Source: Betaproteobacteria bacterium (GTDB taxonomy: Bacteria > Pseudomonadota > Gammaproteobacteria > Burkholderiales > Burkholderiaceae_E). From it: a DNA stretch of 32,475 nucleotides. Location: the NCBI GenBank assembly GCA_009922405.1, contig RFVZ01000001.1, forward strand, positions 1 through 32,475. The letters run 5' to 3'. A program made the translations under genes and the position numbers. A model generated the notes under the pieces. It did not search any database and had not been told where the DNA came from. It worked only from the letters and a program-made list of their open reading frames with translations. Every line of letters begins with the position of its first letter. Position 1 is the stretch's first letter. Below, in pieces: positions 3,670 through 27,463 of this stretch.

Positions 3670-3740
3670 GCCTCGAGTCAGGGGTGCGAAGGTTCGAGGC
3701 GCCCAAGAAATCCGCTTGGGCCACCTTTCTGGGGTTTCTC
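3670..3740 (+). other. Two consecutive hairpins between tsaD and the dehydrogenase gene (possible weak terminator or leader structure)
   Basis: GCCTCGA (3670-3676) pairs with TCGAGGC (3694-3700). GCCCAAG (3701-3707) pairs with CTTGGGC (3715-3721) across a 7-nt loop, followed by CACCTTTCTGGGGTTTCTC and then ATG 3741. The T-tract is poor, so the function is uncertain. Confidence 0.3.
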
Positions 3741-5174
3741 ATGCGCCTGACATCCAGTAACCATCGGTCGATCGTTGAGCTTGCCCCAAATCCGCTCGCC
3801 GAACTCGCTCCGCCAGCGCACGCACCCCAGCCAGAGCGCAGCGCCGAACCTGAACCCAGCGCACTGCCCGCTTTATCACGGGTTCGTCTACACACACTGC
3901 GTATCGGGGTGGTCGGTTTAGGGTACGTCGGCCTGCCTTTGGCCGTCGCTTTCGGGCGACGCTTCCAAACCACCGGGCACGATGCATCTGCCGGGCATAT
4001 CGACCGCTTGCAGTCTGGTCACGATCCTGCGGGAGAGATCGAACCGAGCCAACTCCTGAGCGCCCAGCGCCTTCAATTTACCGGCAATCCCGAATCGCTC
4101 AGCGATTGCGAGATGATCTTTGTCTGCGTTCCAACCCCCGTCAATGAAGCACATCAACCCGACTTTGGCCCACTGATCGACGCGACGCGCACGGTCGCCC
4201 GCACCCTCCGAAAGGGCGCCGTCGTCATCTACGAATCCACGGTTTACCCGGGCGCCACCGAAGAAATCTGCATTCCTATCCTTGAAGCTGAATCCGGATT
4301 ACGCTGGAAACAGGACTTCCATGTGGGTTACTCCCCCGAGCGTATCAACCCTGGTGACCGCAAACACACGCTCAGTACGGTCTGCAAAGTGGTCTCAGGA
4401 GATACACCCGAAGCGCTTGAACTGATCGCCCAGACCTATGAGCAGATCGTTGAAGCGGGCGTCTTCAGGGCCAGCAGTATCGCGGTCGCAGAGGCCTCCA
4501 AAGTGATTGAGAACACTCAGCGCGACCTCAACATCGCCCTCATGAACGAGTTGTCCCTGATCTTTCACCGCATGGGGCTCGACACCCACGAGGTGCTTGA
4601 AGCGGCCGGCACCAAGTGGAATTTCCTGCCCTTTCGTCCTGGCCTGGTCGGCGGACACTGCATCGGAGTCGATCCGTATTACCTGACCCACAAAGCCGAA
4701 AAACTCGGCTACCACCCCCAAGTCATCCTCGCAGGACGACGAATCAATGATGGGATGGGCAAATACGTCGCTGAACAAACCGTCAAAGAAATCACCAAGG
4801 CAGGGCTGCCGGTCGCGGGAGCTCCTGTCACGATCCTGGGCCTCACCTTCAAGGAAGACGTCGCCGACCTGCGTAACTCGAGGGTCTTCGACGTTGTCAG
4901 CGAGTTACGAAGCTATGGCGCCCAGGTCCATGTGCATGATCCGGTTGCTGATCCGGCCGAGGCGTTAAGGGAATACGGCATCACGCTCAAATCCTGGGAC
5001 CAGCTACCGCGCTCCAATGCGATTGTCGCCGCCGTTGCCCACCGGTCATTAACCCAGCTTCCGATTGAACAAATTGCCCAAAAGCTCTATCCGGGTGGCG
5101 TTTTTATCGATATCAAGTCCGCCTTCCCCGCCACCGAATTGACGCGCCTTGGCGCGCGCGTCTGGCGACTTTGA
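3684..5174 (+). CDS. UDP-N-acetylhexosamine 6-dehydrogenase (TviB/WbpO/WbpA-type nucleotide-sugar dehydrogenase)
   Basis: Rossmann motif VVGLGYVGLPLAVAF; 'VYESTVYPG', 'VGYSPERINPGD', 'KVIENTQRDLNIALMNEL' and 'FRPGLVGGHCIGVDPYYLTHK' (catalytic Cys). By eye it is nearly colinear with Salmonella TviB. The start is uncertain (GTG 3684 or ATG 3741), and either choice leaves a Pro/Ala-rich N-terminal extension. Confidence 0.9.
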   Translation: MRRFEAPKKSAWATFLGFLMRLTSSNHRSIVELAPNPLAELAPPAHAPQPERSAEPEPSALPALSRVRLHTLRIGVVGLGYVGLPLAVAFGRRFQTTGHDASAGHIDRLQSGHDPAGEIEPSQLLSAQRLQFTGNPESLSDCEMIFVCVPTPVNEAHQPDFGPLIDATRTVARTLRKGAVVIYESTVYPGATEEICIPILEAESGLRWKQDFHVGYSPERINPGDRKHTLSTVCKVVSGDTPEALELIAQTYEQIVEAGVFRASSIAVAEASKVIENTQRDLNIALMNELSLIFHRMGLDTHEVLEAAGTKWNFLPFRPGLVGGHCIGVDPYYLTHKAEKLGYHPQVILAGRRINDGMGKYVAEQTVKEITKAGLPVAGAPVTILGLTFKEDVADLRNSRVFDVVSELRSYGAQVHVHDPVADPAEALREYGITLKSWDQLPRSNAIVAAVAHRSLTQLPIEQIAQKLYPGGVFIDIKSAFPATELTRLGARVWRL

Positions 5175-6425: not shown

Positions 6426-7607
6426 GTGACAGATCTCATCGCGCTCAATGGACGTTTGCTTGCCTCAATCAAGGCGGACGACTACGCCGGCCACGATCCC
6501 TTTGATTTTTTAAATAGCAGGCTCTTTCAGGCGACCCCGCTCAATCAAAACCGCATCGCACGGCTGGTTTGGCTTCAACTTGGCAAGCACCTGCCAATTA
6601 ATCTGCGTCCACTGCTGCAAGTGCCCAAAATGCGCAACCCCAAGGGAATTGCCCTTTGCCTGGCGGGTCTGTTGCAGGACTATCGACGTACCTCGAGGCC
6701 CGAATTTCTCGACGAGGCAAAACGTCTTGGGCCATGGCTAATTAGTCAGAGAAGCGATCCTGAGTTCTGGCAATCCCCCTGCTGGGGCTACCACTTTGAC
6801 TGGCAGGCGCGCGCCTTCCATGTCCCCGCGGGCAAACCCAACATCATCACCACCTGTTATGTGGCCCGAGCGCTTTATGCGCTGGGTCAACAAACCGCCG
6901 ACAGTCGCTTGATGGAGCTGGCCCTGAGTTCCGCCCGATTCATGGCCGACCACCTCTACACCGAGCGCGATGGTCAAGCGTTTTATGCATATATCCCCGG
7001 AGAAACCGCATTCGTGCACAACGCAAGCCTATGGGGTGCGGCCTGGTGCGCATTTGCAGGACATCAAACCGGCCGCGTCGATCTCGTCGACCAGGCCATG
7101 CGCGTGACCCGCGAAACCGTCAGCGCCCAATCCGCTGATGGATCCTGGGTCTACGGCACGCGCAAGCATCACCAATTCGTCGACAGCTTTCACACGGGTT
7201 TCAACCTGGAAGCCCTTTGCCTCATCCGCGACGTCACCCGAAGCGTTGAATTCGATGACTGCATTCGGCGCGGCTATGACTATTACGTCAGCACGTTTAT
7301 CACGTCAACGGGCGATATCAATTACTACAAAACCTCGACCTACCCCCTCGACATGCACAGCGTAGCGCAGGCCGTGATCACTCTATTGACGACCGGAAAT
7401 GGACCGACCGCGCGGGAGCAGTCGACCCTCATTCTGAGTCGTGCGATCGAATGCCTTTATCAACCCGCCCGCAATCGATTCGTTTATCAAAAACACCGCT
7501 GGCTTACCAACCGGATCAACTACACCCGCTGGACACAGGCCTGGGCCTATTACGCCCTCGCTTTTTATCACCGTTACTGCGCCGAGCCCTCCAATGCAAC
7601 GAATTGA
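6426..7607 (+). CDS. Uncharacterised protein in the glycosyltransferase operon; Trp/aromatic-rich helical-repeat composition suggests an (alpha/alpha)-toroid fold
   Basis: 393-aa ORF (GTG start) packed between a GT4 and a GT26 gene, overlapping the GT26 start by 14 nt. There is no signal peptide or TM segment. Recurrent aromatic blocks (WGYHFDWQ, NASLWGAAW, DGSWVYG, WTQAWAYYALAFY) resemble six-hairpin glycosidase, epimerase or lyase folds. I recognise no named family with confidence. Confidence 0.55.
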   Translation: MTDLIALNGRLLASIKADDYAGHDPFDFLNSRLFQATPLNQNRIARLVWLQLGKHLPINLRPLLQVPKMRNPKGIALCLAGLLQDYRRTSRPEFLDEAKRLGPWLISQRSDPEFWQSPCWGYHFDWQARAFHVPAGKPNIITTCYVARALYALGQQTADSRLMELALSSARFMADHLYTERDGQAFYAYIPGETAFVHNASLWGAAWCAFAGHQTGRVDLVDQAMRVTRETVSAQSADGSWVYGTRKHHQFVDSFHTGFNLEALCLIRDVTRSVEFDDCIRRGYDYYVSTFITSTGDINYYKTSTYPLDMHSVAQAVITLLTTGNGPTAREQSTLILSRAIECLYQPARNRFVYQKHRWLTNRINYTRWTQAWAYYALAFYHRYCAEPSNATN

Positions 7608-8578: not shown

Positions 8579-9748
8579 TCAGCCCGCTGCGGGTGATGGA
8601 TTCCAGTTGCGCGCGGCGCGACACAGGGCAATGAAGTCCGGTTCAAGCTTCGACCAAAGCGCCTTAATGCCCTCTTGGTAGGCCAGCTTTGAGGCGACTT
8701 CGAGTTCAGCGGGGTTGGCGAGGCGCTCTCGAATCAGACGGGCGAAGTCTGCCGCGTCGAACTCACAGAACCAGCCTGCCCCGCCTTCTGAGAGCAGATC
8801 TCGATGGCAAGCGTTGTTGGAAACAATGACGGGAAGGCCGTTGACCATGTATTCGTGAATTTTTGTCGGCGGATTGAAGGTATTCCAAGGGCGTTCAGCC
8901 ACCAAGCTCAAACCGATATGGGCTTTGGCAAGCAATGCAGGGATCTCTTGGCCGGGAAGCCGACCGAGGAGAGTGACCCGGTCTTCGATCCCAAGCCTCT
9001 GGACCTGAAATCTGCACTCTTCGAGTTGGGGGCCGGTTGCACCAATAAGGGTGAGATGCACCGGAAGGGATTGGCGTTTAAGGAGCGCGATTGCACTAAA
9101 CATGACGTCTCGACCACGCTCGGCGTTGATCGAGCCCGCAATGACCAGGCGAAGCGATTCCCCGGGTTGATACTGCCGAGGGACGGGTGTCGGGTGCAGC
9201 GCATGATTTTCAGAAACCCCTAACGGCACCGTCACTGCACGCAGTGGATGGACGCCATGCGCAAGCAGGTCCTCGCGGAGTCGGGCACCAATCGGGAGTA
9301 CGACCGAAGCGCGTGCGGCTGCCAAGTATGAGAGTCGGGTCAATGTCATATTGAACCAGCGCACTAAACGTGTCGGGGCATGACTGTCGAACAACTGGGA
9401 TGGATGGACATTCCAGTAAAGAACCGTTGGGAATGAGGCGGGCAAGCCCAATCGGACGGGCGCCATTTGACTCCCGAGAAGGAGTACGAGATCGGGGTTA
9501 CGTTTCGCGATCCAGGGGATGAGCCGTAGGCACCACCACCACATTTGCAGTCGAGATCCACCGGGGGAGGACAACACTTCCACCGAGACCGAAAGGTCTT
9601 CAAGTTCGCGCTGGAATCGAATGTCCCGAACGACAACGATGACCCGCCATCGAGACGCCAATGAACCAATTCGCTGGCGAAAGTCCTGGTAACCGGTCTG
9701 GTCATCGTAGAACCAGACCGGAACAATCGCGAGTGGCCTTTCATTCAT
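8579..9748 (-). CDS. Glycosyltransferase family 4
   Basis: 'LVIAGS', 'RVTLLGRL' and 'PPTKIHEYMVNGLPVIVSN' (EX7E-like), with GT-B organisation. ATG 9748 is preceded by AGAGGTG (Shine-Dalgarno, SD); the track start GTG 9754 is less likely. Confidence 0.8.
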   Translation of the reverse strand: MNERPLAIVPVWFYDDQTGYQDFRQRIGSLASRWRVIVVVRDIRFQRELEDLSVSVEVLSSPGGSRLQMWWWCLRLIPWIAKRNPDLVLLLGSQMAPVRLGLPASFPTVLYWNVHPSQLFDSHAPTRLVRWFNMTLTRLSYLAAARASVVLPIGARLREDLLAHGVHPLRAVTVPLGVSENHALHPTPVPRQYQPGESLRLVIAGSINAERGRDVMFSAIALLKRQSLPVHLTLIGATGPQLEECRFQVQRLGIEDRVTLLGRLPGQEIPALLAKAHIGLSLVAERPWNTFNPPTKIHEYMVNGLPVIVSNNACHRDLLSEGGAGWFCEFDAADFARLIRERLANPAELEVASKLAYQEGIKALWSKLEPDFIALCRAARNWNPSPAAG

Positions 9749-9760
9749 CAGCACCTCTAT

Positions 9761-11251
9761 TTAACGAGCAGTATTCACGAGGCGAACGACAGTCGAGATC
9801 TCACTGAGTTTGGCGAACCGAAACAACCCAGCCGAACCTCCAAAAACGATCAAGGCCAAGAGCAGACTCGAGAAGCCCCCGCTCCAAGCTGTTTGAAACC
9901 AAAGGACAGCCCAGAACGTCACACCGAGGGATAGCAGGGCCACCGCAAGTGAGCGAATGCCAAGAGGACACGTGAGCAAACATCGTGCGGGCTCGCCACC
10001 CTCCAACCTGAGAAGCATTGAGGCGAGGATGATCACCCGGACGCCCGCAACCGCCGCCACGCCTATTGCCCCAGCGAGGGCGCCCGATGCGATGACAATT
10101 GGCACCGCGAGGAGCGAGGAAAGCATGCTGGCGCGGTTCAACAAAATCGCGTCACCGGCCGCGTTATAGGCGCTCCAGAGCGCGGATTCAATGCTGGCGA
10201 ACATCAACTGCCCGATCAGGAGCGCAGCGATCGGGAGATGTTGTCCAAATCGATCCTTCGTCAAGAGATGTTCGAGTTCTGGCCCTGCCGCAATCAAGAC
10301 AACCAGAGCGACACACAGGACGAACAAATTGACTCGAGCCATGACAGTGAGCGCCCCGAGAACCGCGGAGTCCGCGCGAACGTGGTTTAGTCGGCGCGCA
10401 GAGAGGCTGGTTTCGATATTGGGTAACACGAGTTGTAGTGGCAAGAACGCTTTTGCCCGATCGGCCAGTTGTTGAAAAAAGGCAAATGCGGCCAGGCTTG
10501 CGGTGTCAGCGAAAACCCCAACGATCAGTCGAAGTGCGGGTCCCTGAGTTGGCATCGAGGTCAGGTAGGCCCCCCAAGCGGATAGGCAGCACTTCAGGAT
10601 CGTTCGACGGTCTTTGAAGGCCCAAGGTTGAAGTACCTGATGGTTTTGGGCTGTCTGACGAGCCAGTAACTGCAGCATGGCAAACACCACCAGTAAGGCC
10701 TGCAGTGACTCTGTCCAAAGGGTGACACGGATGACGTAATCGAGCGTCAACCCGTCCTCGTTGAGCCATACTTGACCACCGAATGCGCCGCTTCTGACCA
10801 ACAAAATTAACAATCCGATGATGGCGACTGTTCGGTGCAAAGCAAACGCCGAAGCGGTGACGGTCAGCCCTTCGGTCGTTGCGACAATGGCAACCAAGGT
10901 CACGAATAACGGCGTCGACACAGCCTTGATGGGTACCGCAACGAAAGTCACACCGAGGGCGATCCACGTGACCCCCATTGCCAGGATGATGGAAGCAACC
11001 AAGCGCATCAGAATCAACTCGGCTCCGAGTTGAAGAGCGGGCCTGACGTGGCCAGCAGCGTGCAGCGGCGGGATAAAACGGAAAGCCCCGCGGTCGTATC
11101 CGAGTGATCCGGCGACAACCACCAACATCACCATCGACAATAGCAATGCATAGTCCGCGTAGACCATGAGCGCCATATTCCGGGCCAGAACGATCGGAAC
11201 GAAAAGGCCCAGGAGACCGGTCAGTACCCGAATTGCCGCAAACCCAAGCAT
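9761..11251 (-). CDS. Wzx-like polysaccharide flippase (MOP superfamily)
   Basis: 496 aa, almost entirely hydrophobic, with about 12-14 TM helices by eye. The N-terminus ...VPIVLARNMALMVYADYALLLS resembles 'polysaccharide biosynthesis protein' flippases. It sits between the polymerase-like gene and a GT gene, 6 nt after the upstream stop. Confidence 0.65.
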   Translation of the reverse strand: MLGFAAIRVLTGLLGLFVPIVLARNMALMVYADYALLLSMVMLVVVAGSLGYDRGAFRFIPPLHAAGHVRPALQLGAELILMRLVASIILAMGVTWIALGVTFVAVPIKAVSTPLFVTLVAIVATTEGLTVTASAFALHRTVAIIGLLILLVRSGAFGGQVWLNEDGLTLDYVIRVTLWTESLQALLVVFAMLQLLARQTAQNHQVLQPWAFKDRRTILKCCLSAWGAYLTSMPTQGPALRLIVGVFADTASLAAFAFFQQLADRAKAFLPLQLVLPNIETSLSARRLNHVRADSAVLGALTVMARVNLFVLCVALVVLIAAGPELEHLLTKDRFGQHLPIAALLIGQLMFASIESALWSAYNAAGDAILLNRASMLSSLLAVPIVIASGALAGAIGVAAVAGVRVIILASMLLRLEGGEPARCLLTCPLGIRSLAVALLSLGVTFWAVLWFQTAWSGGFSSLLLALIVFGGSAGLFRFAKLSEISTVVRLVNTAR

Positions 11252-11257
11252 CGCGAA

Positions 11258-12817
11258 CTAGAGGGGGGGGCGATGGGTTCGTAGCCACCCCACATAGCCG
11301 ATTGAGAGTGCCAGCAGCAGCTGTGTACAGGGTTCATCGACCAGGGCCCGGTCGTAGAAGAGCATCGTGACAAAAACAGCCAAGAGACTCGCGACCATCC
11401 GCGTTGAGGCCCGATGGGTTGCTGACAAGCTTCGGTCCCCGATCAGGCGCATGGAATAGGCCAGCGTCACCAGGATCAATCCGCCAAACAAAAGGGCACC
11501 AATGACTCCAGCATCCCAAAGCAACATCGATAGGGTCGTCGCCGCAATGGCGAGCGGTGCAAAGCGCTGTGCAACAACGCCGACCGCAACCACGCTCTTG
11601 GCGCGCGAGGCTGCGGGACCAAATCCGATCAGGCGGTTTGGCCAGTCGGTGTACTGATCGTCAATCCAGAGCGCAATGGAAGCCCCTCGACTAATTTCAC
11701 CAGTTTGATAATTGATTTCGGATGGATTAAAGAAGTATCTGGATGCCCGTTCAATGCGAACCTCAATGGGCACATGTTCAGCGCCCCGATTGGTCCAGTG
11801 AACGGCTTCGTAAACCATCGCAGTCCCAACGACGAATGCGGCCAAGGCACCGATCACCCCAATCAACATTCCGGGTCGGCGGATCAGATGGTCGTGAAAA
11901 CCCACGCAGACCGCGATCGGCACCCAGAAAAATGCTGCTTTAACCTCGCCAGCCAAGGTCAGCGCGATCGAAAAAGCAATGGTCAGGATGGCGACCGACC
12001 AGCCCCCCAACTTGAACTGCGCGCGTGAAACCGCTAGGACGGATGCGGCGATTCCGTAAAGCACCAGAAAACTGCTATTGCCGCCACCATCGCCGCCGAA
12101 TGTGCCGACGACCGCATCAAACGCGGTTTCATCACCGCGGGACTGACGCTCAGGAACGAGCACAAGCACCTGATAAAGAACTGCGGGCAGTTGCAGCGCG
12201 AGGCCCCAAGGAATCCAGCGCCAGAGCCGATCGAGTTGGTCGACGCTCCAACGATGAAACAGCAGCGCAAAAGTGACCGCCCAAAATGGAAGGTAGGTCT
12301 TCAGACCAACGGCAACCTGGACCCATGGCGAGCGGTTGATCACTGCAGAAATCAGCATGATCGACACGTAAATCATCAACAAAATCGGAATGGCACCGGA
12401 ATTCCCCGCACGCTCTTCCGAATCAGGTGGGGACTTGGCGATCCTCAGGCGTTCCAAGAGTGAACGCACAAAAACTAGAACGGCCAAGCCATAAGGTATC
12501 CAGGCGACGACTGGCGACAATAGAACGCTCGCCATTGGCCCCTGAATAAAAAATGTGAGAACCAAGAGCATCCAGATCAGCCACTCGATTGGTACGAATA
12601 ACGCGCCAAGACCAGCCAACCCGCCGAGCAAGAGGAACAGGATGGGTAACGCTCCGATCGCAATCAGAAGACCTGAGGCGATGGCAAGGCTAAGAAGGGC
12701 CAGAAGCGCCAACGTTGGCAGAGCGGGCACGGTCGGCAGAGTCCGCAGAGTCCGCAGCCTCGGCAGAGTTGACTGCGGCGGCCACGCGCCCGTCGGTCTT
12801 ACGGAGGGTTCAAGCAC
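11258..12817 (-). CDS. Wzy-like polymerase / O-antigen-ligase-like polytopic membrane protein
   Basis: 519 aa with many TM helices plus one large hydrophilic loop (..YEAVHWTNRGAEHVPIEVRIERASRYFFNPSEINYQTGEISRGASIALWIDDQYTDWPNRLIGFGPAASRAK..). It contains AT-richer patches. The assignment rests on architecture and context only. The start is uncertain because the N-terminal 35 codons are a 9-bp repeat tract. Confidence 0.55.
   Translation of the reverse strand: MLEPSVRPTGAWPPQSTLPRLRTLRTLPTVPALPTLALLALLSLAIASGLLIAIGALPILFLLLGGLAGLGALFVPIEWLIWMLLVLTFFIQGPMASVLLSPVVAWIPYGLAVLVFVRSLLERLRIAKSPPDSEERAGNSGAIPILLMIYVSIMLISAVINRSPWVQVAVGLKTYLPFWAVTFALLFHRWSVDQLDRLWRWIPWGLALQLPAVLYQVLVLVPERQSRGDETAFDAVVGTFGGDGGGNSSFLVLYGIAASVLAVSRAQFKLGGWSVAILTIAFSIALTLAGEVKAAFFWVPIAVCVGFHDHLIRRPGMLIGVIGALAAFVVGTAMVYEAVHWTNRGAEHVPIEVRIERASRYFFNPSEINYQTGEISRGASIALWIDDQYTDWPNRLIGFGPAASRAKSVVAVGVVAQRFAPLAIAATTLSMLLWDAGVIGALLFGGLILVTLAYSMRLIGDRSLSATHRASTRMVASLLAVFVTMLFYDRALVDEPCTQLLLALSIGYVGWLRTHRPPL
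11263..11270. repeat. G8/C8 homopolymer at the wzy-like 3' end, 12 nt upstream of the wzx-like ATG
   Basis: Read directly: ...cgaactagaGGGGGGGGcgatggg... It encodes the last Pro-Pro of the polymerase-like ORF. Confidence 0.95.
12717..12770. repeat. Six imperfect 9-bp tandem units (ggcagagcg ggcacggtc ggcagagtc cgcagagtc cgcagcctc ggcagagtt)
   Basis: Read directly. In the minus frame it encodes PRL-RTL-RTL-PTV-PAL-PTL at the putative N-terminus of the Wzy-like ORF, just downstream of the EpsG-like stop (12810). Confidence 0.85.
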
Positions 12818-13742
12818 CCGACAGCACCGAGCCGAAAAGCTTGCCGCCTACGTCCGTGATGGACTTGACCAAGGCTTGCACCGCTCTGGCCCGGCTACTG
12901 CCCCGGCGCGCAACCAGCACATTGCCATCGACTCGGGCCGAGATTGCGAGGAGTTCGGGGGCTTCCGATGCCGCTGGCGTATCCAGAATAATCACCTGAT
13001 GCAATTCGGCGGCATGCCGAAGGAGCTCGCCGAATCGGGGTCCTACGAGAAGGTCGGCGGCATTGGGGGGCTCGCCGCCACACGAAATCAGACTGAGTGA
13101 GCGCATGGGCTCGATCTGAACTTTGGCGCCGGCCGAGGGACGCCCGGAAAGAATGGTTGACAGCCCCACGCTGCCATCCAGTCCAAACATGCGGTGGAGT
13201 CGACCGCGGCGCATGTCCGCATCAATGAGCAGAACCTCAAGACCCGTTTGAGCGAATACCACCGCGAGATTGGCAGCAAGAAAACTGCGTCCCTCGGAGC
13301 GGGCAACGCCAACAAGCGCCACTGTGCGAGGCTCGGATGGACCGAGTGCGCTCCAGCGCAACATCAGTTGGTCCCGCAGTTCGCGCAGGTCGTCTAGTAC
13401 GGGGTGAAAAGACTCGTGCGCTGCGATGACCTCGCGGTCAATGCGGTGCTCTCCAGGAATGACGAGCGGCAGATCAAACTGATAGGCCAGGAGCGTCTTT
13501 AAATCTTCGGGCAGTAAAAGACCGAGCGCAATCGCGGCTTCGCCAAATCGCATGCCGGAAGCCCGAGCATGGCAGACGATTCGATCAATTTCCTCGTCGT
13601 TAAGCAGTCCCGCCTCCTTCAGGATACGGCCGAGGGGTTGATCGCGCGCTAGCCCAGTCTGCGTCACGCGACTTAGCTGGTTTGAAGAGTTCTGAACGCT
13701 CAGGTCCACCGATCCACTCATCCCTGTGCTCCTAGGCGTCAT
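12810..13742 (-). CDS. EpsG-like P-loop partner of the chain-length determinant (BY-kinase-like ATPase domain) with an N-terminal T2SSE_N/MshEN-like domain
   Basis: ATG 13742 forms an ATGA overlap with the EpsF-like stop. The C-terminal domain aligns with BY-kinases: GVARSEGRSFLAANLAVV (Walker A region), LLIDADMRRG (Walker A') and VIILDTP (Walker B). The N-terminal residues 36-88 form two 24-residue MshEN-like units. See the findings for the atypical features. Confidence 0.8.
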   Translation of the reverse strand: MTPRSTGMSGSVDLSVQNSSNQLSRVTQTGLARDQPLGRILKEAGLLNDEEIDRIVCHARASGMRFGEAAIALGLLLPEDLKTLLAYQFDLPLVIPGEHRIDREVIAAHESFHPVLDDLRELRDQLMLRWSALGPSEPRTVALVGVARSEGRSFLAANLAVVFAQTGLEVLLIDADMRRGRLHRMFGLDGSVGLSTILSGRPSAGAKVQIEPMRSLSLISCGGEPPNAADLLVGPRFGELLRHAAELHQVIILDTPAASEAPELLAISARVDGNVLVARRGSSRARAVQALVKSITDVGGKLFGSVLSGA

Positions 13743-15145
13743 CAAGTCAACGAAGAAGGCGAAACCCCAAGATGCAAGGGGCGTCTACCGACAACCCGAA
13801 TGCGCCCGATGACTGGACCAGGCAAGACGTTTTCCAAGTCTTCAAGAGTCCGAATACGTTGATCGGAAAATTCGAGCAGCAGGACGCCCAGGAAACCCAG
13901 AATCAGGCCGAGAAAGGCGCCCACAAGTCCATTCAGGATCAAATTGGGACTGGCGGGCTTTAGGGGTTCGACGGCTGGGTTCAGGGTCACCACATTGCCC
14001 TGGGTCGATCGACTCTCGAGCCCCGCCTGATTGAGCCGCTGCAAGCTCTGGTCGTAAGCCCGTTGAGCATTTTCGAGATCGCGTTCAAGCACTCTGAGTT
14101 CATCGCGACTTTGCTTCATGGCCATCACTCGGCCGCGCTGGGAATCAAGGGCGGTCCGCGCCTCGAGCTCTCTCCGTTCGGCCACCGAATAATTCTTGGA
14201 AATACTGCTGGCGACCGTATCAATTTCCTGCAAGACCCGTGTGCGGGTTGCGTCAAGCTCTTGCTGCAATTTCAGAATCTCGGGATGGTTGCGGCCGTAA
14301 ACCGCAGAGAGCTCACGCTGACGGGCCTCAAGGCGCGCCTGATTGGCCTTGAGTTGCTGGACCAGCGGATTCTGAAGAATTTCGGGTAGATCCGAGGCCA
14401 CCCCGCGACTCAGGGATTCGACCGCAAGTTGCCGACGCTTGGCAGCCTCGCCAGTTTGGGCGGACAAGCCCACCATCTGGGTCGAGAGCTCGAGCAGTCG
14501 GGCACTTTCGACATCAAACCGCTCTTCGGACGAAAAGATGCCCTTGGCGCGCTGGTAATCCGTGACCCGTCGCTGGGTCTGATCCAGCCGCTCGCGCAGC
14601 AACTGCACCTGCTCGGCGAACCAGACTCGAGACTGCTTGGCTGGGGCAATGCGGATTTCAATTTGGGTCTCGACGTAAGCCTGGCCAAAGGCATTGGCGA
14701 TCGAGGCCGCACTCGCAGCGGTGCCGGCCGTGGCGGTAATCGACAAAACAGACGAATCGCGTGTCGGTCGAACATCCAGGCGTCGCAGCAATCCATCTGC
14801 AACCCATTGCCGAATCGCCCCCCGACCCTGAGTCTCCTTTTGCCAAGCAGCGACGGTTTCAGGCGAGTCTGTCAGACCCAATGCATCCACGACCCGCAAC
14901 GCAACTTTCTGACTAGTGAGGATTTCCACCTGGGTTGACAGGTAGGCCTGCATCATCGCAGCCGGCAGGGCGGGCCCAGACACCGGATTGGTTGCACCCA
15001 GATCCAGAAGCACCTGTGTGCTGGCCAGATAGGTGGGTTTGCGCGTCAAACCGAACCCAAGCGCACCGCCCAACACAATAAGGGTGGTGAGCACGATGAC
15101 CCACCATCGGGCCAGAATGATCGAAAACAATTGACGTGGATTCAT
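13742..15145 (-). CDS. EpsF/GumC/Wzz-like polysaccharide co-polymerase (chain-length determinant, PCP)
   Basis: N-terminal TM helix (WWVIVLTTLIVLGGALGFGL), a long coiled-coil-rich periplasmic region and a C-terminal TM helix (LILNGLVGAFLGLILGFLGVLLL). A GGAGAA SD lies 5 nt before ATG 15145. Confidence 0.8.
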   Translation of the reverse strand: MNPRQLFSIILARWWVIVLTTLIVLGGALGFGLTRKPTYLASTQVLLDLGATNPVSGPALPAAMMQAYLSTQVEILTSQKVALRVVDALGLTDSPETVAAWQKETQGRGAIRQWVADGLLRRLDVRPTRDSSVLSITATAGTAASAASIANAFGQAYVETQIEIRIAPAKQSRVWFAEQVQLLRERLDQTQRRVTDYQRAKGIFSSEERFDVESARLLELSTQMVGLSAQTGEAAKRRQLAVESLSRGVASDLPEILQNPLVQQLKANQARLEARQRELSAVYGRNHPEILKLQQELDATRTRVLQEIDTVASSISKNYSVAERRELEARTALDSQRGRVMAMKQSRDELRVLERDLENAQRAYDQSLQRLNQAGLESRSTQGNVVTLNPAVEPLKPASPNLILNGLVGAFLGLILGFLGVLLLEFSDQRIRTLEDLENVLPGPVIGRIRVVGRRPLHLGVSPSSLT

Positions 15146-15185: not shown

Positions 15186-16061
15186 TCAGAACAGACTCTC
15201 GCGAAGGAAAATCAAGTCCGACGCGCGTACCGCCTCGTCGAGCCGGGGTTCGAATACTCGAACTTCCCCGCGATCGTCCCGTCGAAATACCCGCAAGCCC
15301 CGGTCAGTGCCACGCAAGGTCAGCCCTCCCCCTTTTGCGACGGCTTGTGCAAGCGTCATCCCGCGTTCAATGGGATACATACCAGGACGCTGTACCTGCC
15401 CGTAAACGTAATAAACGGGCGCTCGGTGAACGTAAACGGAATCACCGGACCGCAACGGAACGTCCTGTTCGAACTTCCCTGCAACGAAGATTTCATTGAG
15501 GTCGATTTCCATGCGCCTCGGTGCACCGGTCTGCGCGGTCGTGATGACCACGCGGTCGCCCCCGCCCTCTGAGACTCCACCCGCAAGGGCGAGCACCTCA
15601 GAAAGACGCATGGTCTGGGCATCCATCGGGTAGCGCCCTGGGCGGTTGACGTTGCCCAGCACAGAAACTTGTTGACTCCGAAACTGACTCACCTGAATCG
15701 AAACTTGCGGATCGCGCAGAAAGCCCCCCTCTTGCAAGCCACGGGCAATCAAGCGCTCAGCTTGATCGGTGCTCAGACCACCGACCTGTAAGGTGCCCAG
15801 TAGGGGAAAGGTTATTCGACCAGAATCCGCGATCCGGGACTCAATCGACAGGTCCGGGTGCTGAAACACCATGATCTTTAGGACATCGCCCGAGCCCAAG
15901 GGGTAGTCGCCGTTTGAGCGTTGCTCGGCGAGTGGCGGCAGGGCCTCGACGGCCAGGGCTCGGGGCGGCGCAGCATTGGCCATCGGCAGCACGAGCCAAA
16001 GGACAGAGCAGATCGAGATGGAACAGGAGCGAACAAGCGATTGGAGACATGACCGGTACAC
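15186..16061 (-). CDS. EpsE/Wza-like outer-membrane polysaccharide export protein (OPX; Poly_export + SLBB)
   Basis: 'YPLGSGDVLKIMVFQHPDLS', 'GRITFPLLGTLQVGGLSTDQAERLIA' and 'GDSVYVHRAPVYYVYGQVQRPGMYP' are typical OPX blocks. I place the start at GTG 16061, which is preceded by GGAGG (16067-16071, 5-nt spacer). This gives the signal peptide MYRSCLQSLVRSCSISICSVLWLVLPMANA|AP. The track start is 16106. Confidence 0.85.
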   Translation of the reverse strand: MYRSCLQSLVRSCSISICSVLWLVLPMANAAPPRALAVEALPPLAEQRSNGDYPLGSGDVLKIMVFQHPDLSIESRIADSGRITFPLLGTLQVGGLSTDQAERLIARGLQEGGFLRDPQVSIQVSQFRSQQVSVLGNVNRPGRYPMDAQTMRLSEVLALAGGVSEGGGDRVVITTAQTGAPRRMEIDLNEIFVAGKFEQDVPLRSGDSVYVHRAPVYYVYGQVQRPGMYPIERGMTLAQAVAKGGGLTLRGTDRGLRVFRRDDRGEVRVFEPRLDEAVRASDLIFLRESLF

Positions 16062-16140
16062 AGGAACCTCCAGTGGTTCCCACCAGTCTCGTGGGCGAGA
16101 CCGCACAATGCTGTGCGGAAATTAGCCCGTCGGGCCCGAC

Positions 16141-17040
16141 TTAAACAACCTCAGGGCTCGCCGGCCACAATCGGGCTGCCCCGCGCACGCCCGACGAATC
16201 GCCATAACGCGCTGTGACAATGCGCGTCTCAATTCGATCCGAAAAGATCCAGGGCTTCCAGTAAGTCTGCAAGCGGGTGGGCAAATCTCGAATCTTGCTC
16301 AGTCCACCGCCCAACACGATGACATCCGGATCAATCACGTTGACGATCGAGGCCAGCGCCCGCGCGCACCGATCAAGCCAGAGATCAAGAGCTTCGATGG
16401 CGAGCGAATCCCCGGCTTCAGCAGCGGCCTCGAGAGCAATGGCATCGGCGATTGGCGAATACGAAGCGGCAAGAGCCGGTCCACTCAACCAGGTTTCGAG
16501 GCAACCCCGGCGGCCACACCAACATGGGGGGCCATCCCATTCCGCTGAATTTGGCCAGGGTAAGGGGTTGTGACCCCATTCACCGGCGATCCGATTGCGC
16601 CCGGAGATTAATTGTCCATTCACGACGAGGCCGCCCCCAACACCCGTCCCGAGAATGACGGCGAATGCCGCCGCTGCGCCTTGAGCCGCACCATCGGTGG
16701 CTTCGGACAGCGCAAGGCAATTGGCATCGTTTTCAATGCGAACCGGGCGGCCCAGTAACTGCTCAAGATCGGCTTGCAATGGCTGGCCATTGAGGCAGGT
16801 GGAATTGGCATTACGCACCTTGCCCGACTGAACCGACAAGGACCCCGGTATTCCCAGACCCACCGTCGCGCGGCACGCCAGATCGGCTTCCGCCCCTGCG
16901 ATCAAACCGATGATCGCCTGAAGGGTCGCCGCGTAGTCCCCCTGCGGTGTTGCAACCCGACGCCTCAGTCGCTCCTGTTCCGATGCGTCGAGCGCAACCA
17001 CTTCGATCTTGGTTCCACCGAGATCCAGACCCAGTCGCAT
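16141..17040 (-). CDS. mak: ROK-family hexokinase, Mak (manno/fructokinase)-like
   Basis: [17 protein letters not shown].., 'GLGIPGS', 'VRNANSTCLNGQPL', 'ENDANCLALSEA', 'ILGTGVGGG', 'AGEWGHNPLPW', the zinc motif 'CWCGRRGCLETWLSG' and 'HGDSSGVRGAARLWP'. By eye it is closely colinear with E. coli Mak (YajF). The start overlaps the plsY stop (TGATG). Confidence 0.85.
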   Translation of the reverse strand: MRLGLDLGGTKIEVVALDASEQERLRRRVATPQGDYAATLQAIIGLIAGAEADLACRATVGLGIPGSLSVQSGKVRNANSTCLNGQPLQADLEQLLGRPVRIENDANCLALSEATDGAAQGAAAAFAVILGTGVGGGLVVNGQLISGRNRIAGEWGHNPLPWPNSAEWDGPPCWCGRRGCLETWLSGPALAASYSPIADAIALEAAAEAGDSLAIEALDLWLDRCARALASIVNVIDPDVIVLGGGLSKIRDLPTRLQTYWKPWIFSDRIETRIVTARYGDSSGVRGAARLWPASPEVV

Positions 17041-17702
17041 CAGCCCTCGCCTGCGGGAGATGGCCCTGGATCAGAGGCCTTTTTCTCACCAATTCGACCC
17101 TCGGTCCCCGAGATCAGCTTAGCCAAGTTGGCCCGGTGCCTCGCGATCAGCAAAACGCCAATCACAGCAACAATGAGGACAACCGGCTGGCGGCCAAACA
17201 GCAACCAGGCCCAGAACGGTGCGAACACGGCAGAAATGATTGCAGCAAGGGACGAGAGCCGGAAAAAGGCGGCAATCAGCAGCCAGGTCGCGAGTGTCCC
17301 GAGGCCGAGCCAGAGGTTAAGGCCTAGCAAGACGCCAGCGGCTGTTGCAACGCCCTTACCACCCCGGAACTTCAAAAAAACCGGGAACAAATGACCGAGA
17401 AACGCAAACAGCCCAACTAGGGCAACCGATGTTGCGTCGAGCCCCCAATCCAGCCCCCATTGAGGCCCAGCGCGCTGCGCCACGGCGACCGCCACCCAGC
17501 CCTTCGCCGCGTCGCCCAAAAGCGTCGCCAGTGCAGCCGCTTTGTTACCGGAGCGCAGCACATTGGTTGCACCGGGATTGCCGGATCCGTAGGAGCGAGG
17601 ATCGGCGAGACCCATCGTCCGGCTGACCAGCACCGCAAAGGACACTGAGCCAATCAGGTACGCAAGAAGGTACGCAACACCGTTGACCAATCCGATTTCC
17701 AT
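17040..17702 (-). CDS. plsY: Glycerol-3-phosphate acyltransferase PlsY
   Basis: '[14 protein letters not shown]', '[21 protein letters not shown]', 'LLGDAAKG' and '[12 protein letters not shown]' are canonical PlsY motifs. Confidence 0.95.
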
Positions 17703-17789: not shown

Positions 17790-17828
17790 CAGCTCAAATT
17801 CAGCTCACGCTCAGCTCAAATTCAGCTC
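17790..17828. repeat. Four CAGCTC hexamers at exact 11-bp spacing (a 22-bp unit duplicated in tandem)
   Basis: Read directly: CAGCTCaaattCAGCTCacgctCAGCTCaaattCAGCTC, with hexamers starting at 17790, 17801, 17812 and 17823. The last copy overlaps the lyase-like stop codon. Confidence 0.9.
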
Positions 17829-20422
17829 GCCGAAATCAGGCGGCCCCGACTGTCAACGACCCAGGTAAAGCCGTCCCACTGAATCGTGACCTGCGAATTG
17901 GCCTGGGTGACCACAGGCGCCGGACTGTTACAGCCAAAGTCAAAATGCATCGGCAGCACGGCGCTCGTGACGGCCGAGGGCGCCGTCCATTTCATTTGAT
18001 AAGTCCCCATGAGCGAGCCGTAGCCACTGACCGCCATATCCGGAATTTTGGCCTGACTGAAACCCCACCAAGTCGGGCTCTGGCTGGCCGCAACCGGCTG
18101 GATGCATAGTGCGCCACGATCTGTATTGACCTGCGCGCGCCCGCTCCCAAGCGTTGTAGCAGCGCCAGGCACGTGAAGGTTATATTCCCAACGACGTCCA
18201 GATGTGGCCGCCAGTTGATCAACCGTCACGAAGGATCCATCCGGCCCGGCGATGATGGTTCGCGTCGCCTGACTCATGCCGCTCGGGTAGGCTTTCTGAG
18301 CATCCCCGCTGGTTAGGGTGTAGCCGGCCGCATTGCGCTTGAATGCGGTGACTTGACCCTTGGCCGCCAGGCTCCCTGCGACCTGGCCAACCCCACCATC
18401 GTACGTGATTGCATTATGGGCCTTGGTCTGGACGTACCAGGCGCTGTATTGCGGCGACCAGTAGTAGTCATCAACACCACTGTTGATGAACGTTCGCTTG
18501 GAGCCGACATTCAGAATGAAGGAGTTCTGATCGGCATGGCCATGATTGACCGAGCCATAGGGGCTGGAGCGGAAGTACAAGGAAGCGCGCTTGGGATCCG
18601 CCAGATCGGTCTGGATTGAAACCACCCCAACGTCCGAGAACACCTCAGCCTTTGGTGGAACAAACGTGTTGGGAGCGGCAGAGCCAATAAACGGCGCAGC
18701 GACGAGCCAGTAGTTGGACCGATCGACCCCGGTCAAGCGATCGGCTTTCCACTTGACCAGCGGCACATCCACCCGACGTGCTAAGGCGACAAAGTTGGTC
18801 GTGTCTTCACGAAACGATTCGGATTCGTCGCCAAACGCGCCGGCAGGCGCTCCGGGCGGGAACATGTGCGTCAAGAACACGCCAAAGTTGCGACCCCATG
18901 GTTTTTTCCAGATGTCGATCCCGGAGGCATCGCGCAACGCGTCCGATGCCGACATTTGCGCCAGCACATAACTGCCATATGCTGAACCATTGGCGAATCC
19001 ACCCTCTTCTCCACCCCAGGGGTTCGTTAGCTTGGCGAACAACGGGATTGCTTCCTGAGCCCATGCATCGAACTGGGCTCCCTCACCCGCCATCACTGCA
19101 GTAGCCGCCGCAATATGGCCCAGGATGGTGTAGCCGTGAGAGTCATAGGGCAGGTTTTCCAGGGCACGACTGCCAACCAATTCGTCGAAGGGGCCTTTGA
19201 GACGGGTTTGAACGACCGACCGAATGAGCGCCCGATTCGCGTCGGTCAAGACGTCGTAACAACGATCGAACATCAACGCCAGGGACGACGCAATGTATCG
19301 GTTAACCTGATCCTGCTCTTTGTGGCTGGTTGCGCCATTGGGGTTCCAGCCCGCCAACAAGATCGCGCGTCGAGCCGAGTCCTGGAGAAGGGCCGTATCC
19401 CCTTTAATGCGGGCGACCAAGGCTTCCTCAACCATATAGTCAAGCGAGGGATTCACCTTCCCGGGCATTGCGGTGTAAACAGAAACGCCACCACTGCTGG
19501 GGTATACCGAGGGTTCCGATACGAAATTCGAACCGACATTGCCCTTGACCCGGGTGTACCAAGTGGCGAGATCGGCTGTCCGCTCGGTGCGGATGCGCGA
19601 GGCCCATTGCGCATCAAAATTTCCATTACCAGGCAGGCTTCGCGGCCGGGCCCGGGCCTTAATGTTCGCCATGAGAACGTCGCCCGATGGAATCCGGAAC
19701 TCGGTCGTATCAGTCGAAACCGTAAAGGTCCGCCAGCTGCTGGCCGCACCCAAAGAATTTCCGGTGCTGTTGAGGGGCTGTACCCGCCACTGATAAATCC
19801 CTGCGGGGAATGTGGCGGTCCACCACTGCGCCCAATTACCCCGTACCACCTTGGGCCAGATACCCATCGCACCGCTTACTTCGAGCCGATAGGAAGCAGC
19901 GCCAGAAACGGCTGGCCAGGAGAATTCGGGCGGTGACTGCCGAGTAATACCACCGTGGGCGGGCGCTGTTGGGGCGGACTGGACTGGTGCGGCGCTAATC
20001 CAGTCAGCAGCAAGTACTGTTGAAGGAGGATCCGGTAAGGCGAGCGATTTACTGACGGGGCCGGAATGCCCCACGCTGGGATTACCAGCGATGGTCTGTG
20101 GCCCCGGGTCAAATGTCGGGGCGGGGTCCTGCGGCGTTTGGATCACCAGCAAATCAGGGGCTGGCGCAAGCGCTAACTCAAGTCGGTTATCGGTCAGGTC
20201 CCCAGCATGGTGGTCAATTGGATTACCGGCGGCGTCGGTCGCTGGAGTGTCGGATTTAACTTCAGGCGCCGCGATCGGTGCGCCGGTGTCGGTTGACGTA
20301 GGGTCACCGCCACTGCCACAGGCAGCGAGTGCGACACAGATTGAAGCAGTTGCAGAGATCACGGCAAATGAGGGCGCGGTGAAGTCAGATTTCTTGGATG
20401 GAATAGAAGACACGAGACTCAT
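17822..20422 (-). CDS. Heparinase II/III-like polysaccharide lyase family lipoprotein (DUF4962-like N-domain + Hepar_II_III C-domain)
   Basis: Lipoprotein signal MSLVSSIPSKKSDFTAPSFAVISATASICVALAA|C (Cys35). This is followed by a Pro/Ala/Thr-rich linker of about 130 aa and an FN3/Ig-like segment (PEFSWPAVSGAASYRLEVS...YQWRVQPLN...WRTFTV). A toroid-like region contains 'WNPNGATSHKEQDQVNRYIASSLALMFD'. The C-terminal 'SVNHGHADQNSFILNVGSKRTFINSGVDDYY' matches the heparinase II/III signature HxHxDxxSFxL...G. Confidence 0.8.
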   Translation of the reverse strand: MSLVSSIPSKKSDFTAPSFAVISATASICVALAACGSGGDPTSTDTGAPIAAPEVKSDTPATDAAGNPIDHHAGDLTDNRLELALAPAPDLLVIQTPQDPAPTFDPGPQTIAGNPSVGHSGPVSKSLALPDPPSTVLAADWISAAPVQSAPTAPAHGGITRQSPPEFSWPAVSGAASYRLEVSGAMGIWPKVVRGNWAQWWTATFPAGIYQWRVQPLNSTGNSLGAASSWRTFTVSTDTTEFRIPSGDVLMANIKARARPRSLPGNGNFDAQWASRIRTERTADLATWYTRVKGNVGSNFVSEPSVYPSSGGVSVYTAMPGKVNPSLDYMVEEALVARIKGDTALLQDSARRAILLAGWNPNGATSHKEQDQVNRYIASSLALMFDRCYDVLTDANRALIRSVVQTRLKGPFDELVGSRALENLPYDSHGYTILGHIAAATAVMAGEGAQFDAWAQEAIPLFAKLTNPWGGEEGGFANGSAYGSYVLAQMSASDALRDASGIDIWKKPWGRNFGVFLTHMFPPGAPAGAFGDESESFREDTTNFVALARRVDVPLVKWKADRLTGVDRSNYWLVAAPFIGSAAPNTFVPPKAEVFSDVGVVSIQTDLADPKRASLYFRSSPYGSVNHGHADQNSFILNVGSKRTFINSGVDDYYWSPQYSAWYVQTKAHNAITYDGGVGQVAGSLAAKGQVTAFKRNAAGYTLTSGDAQKAYPSGMSQATRTIIAGPDGSFVTVDQLAATSGRRWEYNLHVPGAATTLGSGRAQVNTDRGALCIQPVAASQSPTWWGFSQAKIPDMAVSGYGSLMGTYQMKWTAPSAVTSAVLPMHFDFGCNSPAPVVTQANSQVTIQWDGFTWVVDSRGRLISAS

Positions 20423-25796: not shown

Positions 25797-26181
25797 TGGC
25801 AGGTGTTAGACCAATCGGCGGAGCACATCGTCGGGCGATCTGACTGCAAAGCAGAACTCCGAGACATGCGCCGATTGCGTCAGCCAGCAAATCGAGCCAT
25901 TCGGCGCTCCGCCCGGGGCTAAACCACTGGATCAATTCGTCCAGCATTCCCAGGAGCACAGCAATTCCCAACACGATAAGCAGCCGGCGGGCGCCTGCAG
26001 CAATCCACAAAAGGGTGCCGATCGACGCAAAAAGAACAACGTGCACAAGTTTGTCGATCGGCGGTCGAATCAGGTTGACCGCGTAGGATTGTTGTCCGTG
26101 ATACCAAAGATTGCCGAGCAACAGCGCGAGGCCGAGCGCCGCCGCGAGGCGCATTTTGGAGCTTGGATGGCCCAGGTTCAT
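25729..26181 (-). CDS. VanZ-like small membrane protein
   Basis: 150 aa with about 4 TM helices. 'DKLVHVVLFASIG' and 'LGMLDELIQWFSPGRSAEWLDLLADAIGACLG' match the VanZ family pattern (D-K-x-x-H ... DE..Q.....R......D...N/D..G). The ATG overlaps the upstream barrel gene's stop (ATGA). Confidence 0.7.
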   Translation of the reverse strand: MNLGHPSSKMRLAAALGLALLLGNLWYHGQQSYAVNLIRPPIDKLVHVVLFASIGTLLWIAAGARRLLIVLGIAVLLGMLDELIQWFSPGRSAEWLDLLADAIGACLGVLLCSQIARRCAPPIGLTPAINTHSDPAPSGAPFPTKSADPD

Positions 26182-27449: not shown

Positions 27450-27463
27450 CAACGACGCTCGGT

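Follow-up and report, generated by a model that had tools for sequence, protein, structure and literature searches.

A divergent EpsG-family protein combining a predicted MshEN_N domain with a BY-kinase-like domain that lacks the Walker A lysine and the tyrosine cluster

The epsG Gene and Its Operon

The window analysed here, a stretch of 32,475 nucleotides from the betaproteobacterial contig RFVZ01000001.1, carries an exopolysaccharide (EPS) locus whose tightly packed epsE-epsF-epsG operon has epsG in third place. The EpsG protein encoded here joins a predicted N-terminal MshEN_N domain, related to receptor domains for cyclic di-GMP (c-di-GMP), to a C-terminal P-loop domain of the bacterial tyrosine kinase (BY-kinase) type from which two hallmarks of these kinases are missing. 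The operon begins with epsE (15186..16106, minus strand), coding for an outer-membrane polysaccharide export (OPX/Wza-like) protein (TIGR03028, 317.5 bits against a cutoff of 262.65; Pfam Poly_export and SLBB). It is followed by epsF (13742..15145, minus strand), whose product is a transmembrane polysaccharide co-polymerase (PCP) of the 2b type with Wzz and GNVR regions (TIGR03017, 459.6 bits against a cutoff of 422.75; Pfam Wzz and GNVR). Both genes lie directly upstream of epsG, which is the gene context tested for in assignment to the EpsG family.

The longest open reading frame (ORF) at this position (12810-13742, minus strand) opens with ATG 13742, overlapping the epsF stop codon, or with TTG 13745, and gives the 310-aa protein described in the initial annotation. 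That sequence translates as it was quoted there, but the start is most likely ATG 13721, giving a gene of 12810..13721 (minus strand) and a product of 303 aa, as judged from the ORF list and the translation. This start is preferred because an AGGAG sequence lies 7 nt 5' of it and because the closest homologues (P0001-P0004, 82-95% identity) are 303 aa in length. The 310-aa numbering of the initial annotation is retained throughout this article; it is seven higher than that of the likely 303-aa protein, whose first residue is therefore M8.

The gene belongs to the EpsG family, although it is divergent. The equivalog model TIGR03029 (EpsG) of NCBIfam matched the protein along its full length (2-273 of 274) with 225.9 bits, under its cutoff of 313.8, and identity to typical family members is at most 51%. 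The NCBIfam models Wzc and eps_fam matched the protein as well. Searching the GTDB representative genomes with the family alignment returned no close relative, the best match having 46% identity.

The N-Terminal Domain

Residues 31-95 (13458..13652, minus strand) form a predicted MshEN_N-like four-helix bundle. Within it, residues 36-88 (nt 13479-13637) comprise a 53-residue tandem motif, PLGRILKEAGLLNDEEIDRIVCHA-RASGM-RFGEAAIALGLLLPEDLKTLLAYQ, with the 24-5-24 layout that the initial annotation had pointed out. This reading was borne out by the NCBIfam model NF053729 ('c-di-GMP motif, MshE-related'), which matched exactly these residues over positions 1-53 of 53 (E=1.4e-7, 31.1 bits); the NfrB model of NCBIfam matched them also. 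BLASTP of the domain against MshE of Vibrio cholerae gave an alignment in the expected register (E=1e-10), and a profile of the family's N-terminal domains, when searched against the PDB, found only GSPII/MshEN chains, namely PilF (5.9e-24), MshE (5HTL, 4.6e-11), and also PilB. Further PDB profile matches of this region were to PilF at 5e-22 and to MshE at 2.8e-10. Pfam matches to the protein at E<=0.1 were limited to weak ones to CbiA, ParA, and MinD, together with a spurious FumaraseC_C match.

Structure prediction with AlphaFold2 (AF2) placed helices at residues 37-43, 49-62, 66-72, and 78-88. A separate model of residues 25-100 (predicted local distance difference test score, pLDDT, 76.8) had as its best Foldseek matches the MshE-c-di-GMP complex (5HTL) and PilF GSPII-B with c-di-GMP bound, with query-based TM scores (TMq) of 0.65-0.76 (0.76 for 5HTL). 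Fumarase C-terminal helices, ranking below the MshEN matches, were dismissed as generic helical matches. By sequence and predicted fold, the N-terminal stretch is thus a genuine MshEN_N homologue. The domain is also under purifying selection in its clade, with a dN/dS of ~0.13 relative to an 82%-identical homologue, a ratio that is only approximate because dS is near saturation.

Alignment to MshE shows that the positions contacting c-di-GMP are present, these being the glycines G38 and G67 and the two hydrophobic triads L37/L81/L85 and I52/V56/F66. Unit II of the motif is fully consensus (R65...Q88) and also satisfies the consensus for the first and last residues (R/K/L...Q), which unit I (P36...A59) does not.

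The P-Loop Domain

The C-terminal domain has a BY-kinase fold according to the AF2 model of the whole protein (pLDDT 90.4, predicted TM score 0.82), which superposes on the kinase domain of Wzc (3LA6) with a root mean square deviation of 1.6 Å over 193 columns in Foldseek. The top 50 Foldseek matches of the whole model were exclusively BY-kinase chains. A profile built from 66 family members likewise matched the solved BY-kinases CapB, Etk, BceF, and Wzc with E-values of 1e-43 to 1e-46, that for CapB being 3e-46. Besides the fold, the protein retains the Walker A' motif (hhhhDxDxR), as VLLIDADMR (13209..13235, minus strand), and the Walker B motif (hhhhDxxP), as VIILDTP (12975..12995, minus strand), both intact in the translation. 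The ring-oligomerization motif ExxRxxR in helix alpha2 is also present, reading D117-D-L-R120-E-L-R123 (13374..13394, minus strand).

The two features not found are the Walker A lysine (G-x5-G-K-[ST]) and a cluster of tyrosines at the C-terminus (Y-cluster). The Walker A motif reads GVARSEGRS (G-x5-G-R152-S; 13284..13310, minus strand), with Arg152 in the place of the catalytic Lys. It is encoded by CGC (13287-13289), which differs from the Lys codons AAA and AAG at all three positions. That Arg152 replaces the catalytic residue follows from the HMMER alignment, in which the G-R-S column of the family falls over G-K55-S of CapB and over G-M-S of the K55M structure 2VED. The C-terminus, TDVGGKLFGSVLSGA (...GSVLSGA; 12810..12857, minus strand), stops 2 residues past the last beta-strand, and the Y-cluster tail is therefore absent; the PDB alignments break off at residue 253 of 271 in CapB and at residue 697 of 720-738 in Wzc, where the Tyr-rich tails of these kinases start. 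The sole Tyr of the 310 residues is Y87 (0.3%), making this the most Tyr-poor ORF of the window, whose 25 ORFs have 2.0% Tyr overall (binomial P(<=1)=0.015).

A deviant-Walker-A ATPase of the ParA/MinD type was considered as an alternative identity and rejected. The signature Lys of KGGxxK[ST] is missing, the matches to CbiA, ParA, and MinD are below cutoff, and the P-loop is of the BY-kinase type.

The initial annotation, made from the letters alone, had already described the kinship with BY-kinases, Arg152 and its codon, the lack of a Tyr cluster, and the single Tyr, and each of these holds. Its proposed structure prediction bears out both the BY-kinase fold and the MshEN-like bundle (AF2, Foldseek). 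Of the models that it named for homology searches, Pfam T2SSE_N was silent, TIGR03029 stayed under its cutoff, and the ParA/MinD matches were weak; the MshEN match came from NF053729.

Conservation Across the EpsG Family

Two sets of sequences were used to examine conservation. The closer set contains 201 aligned homologues, including 120 from a protein database and the best ORF of each of 80 genomic loci. A search of the full library gave 436 clusters (50% identity) at E<=1e-30, and the best 148 of these 436 clusters served as representatives, without P0001 and P0023, which are already in the closer set. Homologues carry database names such as 'tyrosine autokinase' or 'receptor protein-tyrosine kinase'.

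In the closer set, position 152 is R in 187 sequences, K in 12, A in one, and G in one; the K sequences include four canonical kinases, which have no MshEN_N. Among the representatives, the counts at the site are R104/K22/C9/T4/S3/A3/N2/V1, so that 22 of 148 have C, T, S, A, N, or V at the Lys position while Walker A' and B are near-invariant. On a crude neighbour-joining tree rooted on the canonical kinases, at least 21 state changes are required at this site. A few members have fully degenerate P-loops, for example PTADVQSSL and LDSEKQTSL.

Other positions of the P-loop domain are kept. G151, D174, and R123 are invariant in the closer set, and S/T153, D176, R178, R120, and D254 nearly so; among the representatives, D174 is present in 100%, R123 in 99%, G151 and R120 in 97% each, D254 in 96%, and R178 in 93%. 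At position 176, 123 representatives have D and 23 have N; 124 of the 148 carry E or D at position 117. The contact positions of the MshEN motif are likewise better kept than the Walker A Lys (G38 93%, F66 97%, G67 97%, L85 90%, Q88 92%). This pattern indicates selection on the binding of nucleotide and Mg, on the ring interface, and on the MshEN site, but not on the catalytic Lys.

A Y-cluster was found in none of the 148 representatives, whose last 25 residues hold no Tyr in 117 cases, one in 30, and two in a single case. The closer set has no conserved Tyr column; four semi-conserved ones correspond to L91, L93, H109, and H248 of the window protein, and the column of Y87 is variable (R, Y, Q, K, and others). 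Arg152, the missing Y-cluster, and MshEN_N are thus, on the evidence of these alignments, traits of the EpsG family and not peculiar to the window gene.

Unit I of the window protein belongs to a conserved subtype. Its P is shared by 29 of 148 representatives and its A by 35 of 148, and the P...A form is common to the long fusion proteins described below. A minority of the MshEN_N-bearing homologues have a Walker A Lys (GDGK[ST]F) and no Y-cluster, namely L033 (Rubrivivax gelatinosus DSM 1709), L050, L063, L067, L006, and L022. In these, another residue often takes the place of the turn Gly in motif II (RFGEAAVA.[KR]L).

These data refine what had been expected of the orthologues. The MshEN motif is indeed conserved in them, and so is the tail without a Tyr cluster, but the G-R-[ST] form of Walker A is only a majority state. 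The first MshEN unit, which had been called degenerate, does deviate at P36, K42, and A59, but as a conserved P...A subtype resembling the form found in NfrB.

EpsF and the Phosphorylation Circuit

All seven Tyr residues of EpsF lie within residues 39-364, and both its N-terminus and its C-terminal tail are without Tyr. Since they fall between the Wzz N-terminal (5-88) and GNVR (350-423) regions, these residues are presumed to be periplasmic, and EpsF is presumed to have no cytoplasmic Tyr. It is also the presumed membrane partner and activator of EpsG. Natural EpsF-EpsG fusions support such a physical partnership, similar to that of CapA and CapB. Some 25 of the 148 representatives have lengths of 540-808 aa. 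In each of the six that were scanned, the P-loop is accompanied by Wzz, GNVR, or both, consistent with the Wzc-like layout Wzz - GNVR - (MshEN_N) - P-loop, in which MshEN_N would follow the second membrane span and precede the kinase-like domain. These long proteins include P0126, P0129, P0133-P0138, P0168, P0179, P0195, P0201, P0216, and P0254, and both Lys- and Arg-type Walker A motifs occur among them.

Motif scans for low-molecular-weight protein tyrosine phosphatases (LMW-PTP; C.GN.CRS and looser forms), GGDEF domains, PHP-type phosphatases, and PilZ were conducted over 1.35 Mb of loci and the window. Neither the window nor the ±10 kb flanks of the EpsG-type loci showed an LMW-PTP signature; the sole one of the scan adjoins L077, a canonical kinase with a Y-rich tail. 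PilZ-pattern matches were rejected as low-complexity noise.

With Arg in the column of CapB Lys55, no Y-cluster, no Tyr conserved in the family, and no Tyr on the cytoplasmic side of EpsF, EpsG cannot be an 'autophosphorylating tyrosine kinase' in the literal sense. The initial annotation had argued this for the window protein, and the alignments strongly support it for the whole family.

Comparison With Known Systems

The P-loop fold, Walker A' and B, and ExxRxxR are shared by EpsG with Wzc/Etk (PCP-2a) and with CapA/CapB (split PCP-2b), as is the operon logic with an OPX exporter. The split arrangement with a Wzz/GNVR membrane partner is shared with CapA/CapB. EpsG differs from these systems in the Arg for the Walker A Lys, in the lack of a Y-cluster and of a nearby Wzb-type phosphatase, and in the additional MshEN_N.

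With MshE, PilF's GSPII-B, and NfrB it shares the 24-5-24 motif in register, the predicted four-helix bundle, and the Gly and hydrophobic triads. NfrB is similar also in that its MshEN domain is coupled to an exopolysaccharide machine and its motif I begins with Pro. In contrast to these proteins, EpsG has MshEN_N only, without MshEN_C/N1, has A59 for the first Gln, and is predicted rather than known to bind c-di-GMP. The output domain is also different, being a BY-kinase-like P-loop in EpsG and an ATPase of type II secretion systems/type IV pili or a family 2 glycosyltransferase (GT2) synthase in MshE, PilF, and NfrB.

EpsG of Methylobacillus (Mfla_2024) and typical EpsG members have the same two-domain architecture and the same EpsE/EpsF neighbours; relative to typical members, the window protein has P...A in motif I instead of x-I-G...Q and has all semi-conserved Tyr replaced. 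Mfla_2024 has been described as MshEN_N joined with an ATPase 'different from the T2SSE ATPase', and it was predicted from motif conservation to bind c-di-GMP (Wang et al., 2016; PMC5013675, supplementary text, Table 3 and Fig. 3).

A review of BY-kinases raised the possibility that GumC of Xanthomonas is a 'pseudo-BY-kinase' acting without phosphorylation (Hajredini et al., 2022; PMC9800525). The idea of a PCP-associated, phosphorylation-independent BY-kinase-like module without a Y-cluster is common to GumC and EpsG, a likeness drawn from description and not from sequence. GumC differs in having no MshEN_N and no proposed second-messenger input, and EpsG is a separate soluble protein. In a Herbaspirillum study, epsG was used only as an epsG::lacZ reporter and was called a glucosyltransferase.

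No paper on the Walker A Arg, the hypervariable Lys position, or the missing Y-cluster of EpsG was found in our literature searches. The description of such a protein as largely uncharacterised stands for the loss of kinase features but not for MshEN_N and its predicted c-di-GMP binding, which were published in 2016 (PMC5013675). Taken together, the comparisons point to an uncharacterised variant of the BY-kinase/PCP system as the functional class of EpsG.

Proposed Mechanism and Alternative Explanations

We propose that EpsG is a soluble cytoplasmic partner of EpsF in a Wzx/Wzy-type EPS operon and acts as a pseudo-BY-kinase switched by c-di-GMP, a proposal to which we give an even chance. EpsG would dock on the C-terminal tail of EpsF, bind nucleotide without autophosphorylating, and form a Wzc/CapAB-like ring through ExxRxxR. 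Occupancy of MshEN_N by c-di-GMP would set the cycle between the assembled and disassembled (on/off) states, in place of the classical drivers, Tyr phosphorylation and a Wzb phosphatase. With neither self-phosphorylation nor a phosphatase to reset the cycle, it could be set by c-di-GMP at MshEN_N instead, and a high level of c-di-GMP would then act directly on EPS polymerization and export. As a hypothesis, such a c-di-GMP-gated switch acting on EpsF is coherent, and earlier literature has anticipated it in part. Its extension, that c-di-GMP at an MshEN_N fused to a dead BY-kinase has replaced the Tyr-phosphorylation cycle throughout this large, mainly betaproteobacterial Wzx/Wzy EPS family (at least 436 clusters at 50% identity), is put forward only tentatively.

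Published work on MshEN domains makes c-di-GMP gating of EpsG plausible. In the MshE structure, c-di-GMP is bound through the backbone amides of two glycines (G11 and G40) and two hydrophobic triads; G11L and G40I abolish c-di-GMP-induced thermal stabilization, while changes at Arg9 or Gln32 alter affinity by 5-fold at most. Unit I of NfrB from Escherichia coli, P489-L490-G491...R512, also opens with Pro, and the protein binds c-di-GMP with a Kd of 1 uM. GSPII-B of PilF binds it at 6 nM without any Arg, and GSPII-C, whose motif II is opened by P335, is a binder too. Judged from the motifs, c-di-GMP binding by MshEN_N is probable for the EpsG family at large; for the clade of the window protein, the chances are about even or marginally better.

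Several points weigh against the proposed switch. In unit I, the stacking Arg is replaced by P36 and the phosphate-binding Gln by A59, and a hydrophobic position is occupied by K42. The NF053729 score is below the curated cutoff of 38, just as the TIGR03029 score is below its own, and Pfam T2SSE_N misses the N-terminal domain even at E<=0.1. For this domain the Foldseek E-value is only 0.018, its small size making such values weak. In PilF GSPII-B, single Gln-to-Glu changes lower the affinity 80-160-fold, and GSPII-A, in which motif I ends in His and motif II is degenerate, does not bind c-di-GMP. No GGDEF gene was detected by the motif scan within ±10 kb of any locus. On the kinase side, 15% of the representatives retain the Walker A Lys, some of these Lys-bearing relatives may be real ATPases or kinases, and an Arg at Walker A could support slow catalysis. 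The searchable literature contains no biochemical test (c-di-GMP binding, ATPase, kinase) of any EpsG-type protein, and both the assembly of a ring and the direction in which c-di-GMP would act are purely inferential.

Some of these points could also be accounted for if MshEN_N in this clade had lost c-di-GMP binding and become a docking module, like the N-domains of XpsE/GspE or GSPII-A of PilF. EpsG would then be a constitutive, GumC-like scaffold governed by its expression level or by ATP. The off-consensus motif I and the sub-cutoff NF053729 score fit such a loss, non-binding MshEN homologues are documented (the XpsE N-domain as well as PilF GSPII-A), neither a diguanylate cyclase nor a phosphodiesterase is encoded in the neighbourhood, and a phosphorylation-independent pseudo-BY-kinase has a precedent in the proposal for GumC (PMC9800525). 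Against it, the residues expected to contact c-di-GMP (two Gly, six hydrophobic residues, and Q88) are the best-conserved positions of the domain throughout the family, and the P...A motif I is itself a conserved subtype whose P-first, non-Gln-last form resembles that of the binder NfrB. The small effect of Arg9 and Gln32 changes in MshE also makes the loss of these two residues less telling. We regard this explanation as rather unlikely.

It is more doubtful still that EpsG remains an active P-loop kinase or ATPase in which Arg152 does the work of Lys, phosphorylating Tyr residues of other proteins with MshEN_N only tuning its activity. In P-loop NTPases, a Lys-to-Arg change typically leaves nucleotide binding in place and severely impairs hydrolysis or transfer, which speaks against activity even though the other catalytic residues (G151, S153, D174, D176, R178, and D254) are intact and the Lys position is basic in 85% of the representatives. 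Because that position is C, T, S, A, N, or V in 22 of 148 representatives and some P-loops have degenerated completely, the function conserved in the family cannot be catalysis. The substrate of autophosphorylation, the Y-cluster, is missing in every member, and the motif scan of the window and the locus flanks gave no nearby phosphatase gene. Substrates are nevertheless conceivable. Wzc and PtkA phosphorylate Ugd, and CapB phosphorylates CapO; by analogy, the candidates in the window would be a UDP-glucose/GDP-mannose dehydrogenase-family enzyme with 12 Tyr (3684-5174) and the Bac_transf initiating sugar transferase (24393-25796). An artefact, be it a sequencing error in the codon of the Walker A residue, a kinase gene that is truncated or has become a pseudogene, or a fortuitous likeness to MshEN, has a negligible probability. 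A CGC codon three changes from Lys and an Arg shared with 187 of 201 close homologues make a read error unlikely, as the initial annotation had reasoned from the codon. The intact ORF is translationally packed in its operon, with which an independent contig is syntenic, its dN/dS is ~0.07 (likewise approximate), and the MshEN matches of the sequence and profile models reach E-values of 1e-7 to 1e-24.

If the c-di-GMP switch proposed above is correct, it would bear on more than this locus. c-di-GMP directly activates synthase-dependent polysaccharide machines, for example through BcsA, PgaCD, Alg44, PelD, and NfrB, whereas for Wzx/Wzy-dependent capsules and EPS the known inputs are mainly transcriptional and switching is attributed to BY-kinase autophosphorylation. 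To our knowledge, EpsG would then be the first receptor through which c-di-GMP acts directly and post-translationally within a Wzy-dependent (non-synthase) polysaccharide machine. The Wzc-type octamer cycle would have a phosphorylation-free solution driven by a second messenger. Thousands of 'tyrosine autokinase' and 'protein-tyrosine kinase' annotations would be wrong if EpsG binds c-di-GMP and cannot phosphorylate. The K/R/C/T/S/A/N/V variation at a single Walker A site would in turn be natural material for separating nucleotide binding from catalysis.

Other Genes of the Locus

Downstream of epsG, the operon continues with two polytopic membrane proteins, one of 519 aa (11258-12817, minus strand), whose gene overlaps the epsG stop by 8 nt, and one of 496 aa (9761-11251, minus strand), and with a family 4 glycosyltransferase (GT4; 8579-9754, minus strand; Pfam GT4 matches). 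Even a threshold of E<=0.1 gave no Pfam or NCBIfam match for either membrane protein; presumably the pair comprises the Wzy-like polymerase and the Wzx-like flippase of the pathway. The gene order downstream of epsG is the same on the related metagenomic contig L081, where both membrane proteins are kept (455 and 502 aa).

Besides the dehydrogenase and the initiating transferase mentioned above, the EPS genes of the window include those for GT4s, a WecG-type transferase, a UDP-GlcNAc 2-epimerase, and a heparinase II/III-like enzyme. The last of these (17822-20422, minus strand; 866 aa) combines a DUF4962 domain and a heparinase II/III C-terminal domain with a signal- or lipoprotein-like N-terminus. 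It lies inside the EPS locus, is kept in L081, and may be a polysaccharide lyase for the polymer of the locus itself. Between epsEFG and the second EPS block there are genes for a ROK-family sugar kinase and for PlsY, a glycerol-3-phosphate acyltransferase (16141-17702, minus strand), as is also the case in L081.

In the window, Rfam gave nothing at the gathering threshold, including no c-di-GMP riboswitch, and a scan for promoters and terminators gave nothing exceeding the shuffled expectation. Two ORFs of the EPS locus are rich in Tyr relative to the window mean of 2.0%, namely 6426-7607 (plus strand; 5.6%), which has no family match, and 22892-24316 (minus strand; 4.4%), which has only a weak AMP-binding match (E=3.5e-4). 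Just past the initiating transferase and an unannotated 424-aa ORF (26178-27452), there is a gene for a XerC/XerD-type tyrosine recombinase with Phage_integrase and SAM-like N-terminal domains (27573-28553, minus strand).

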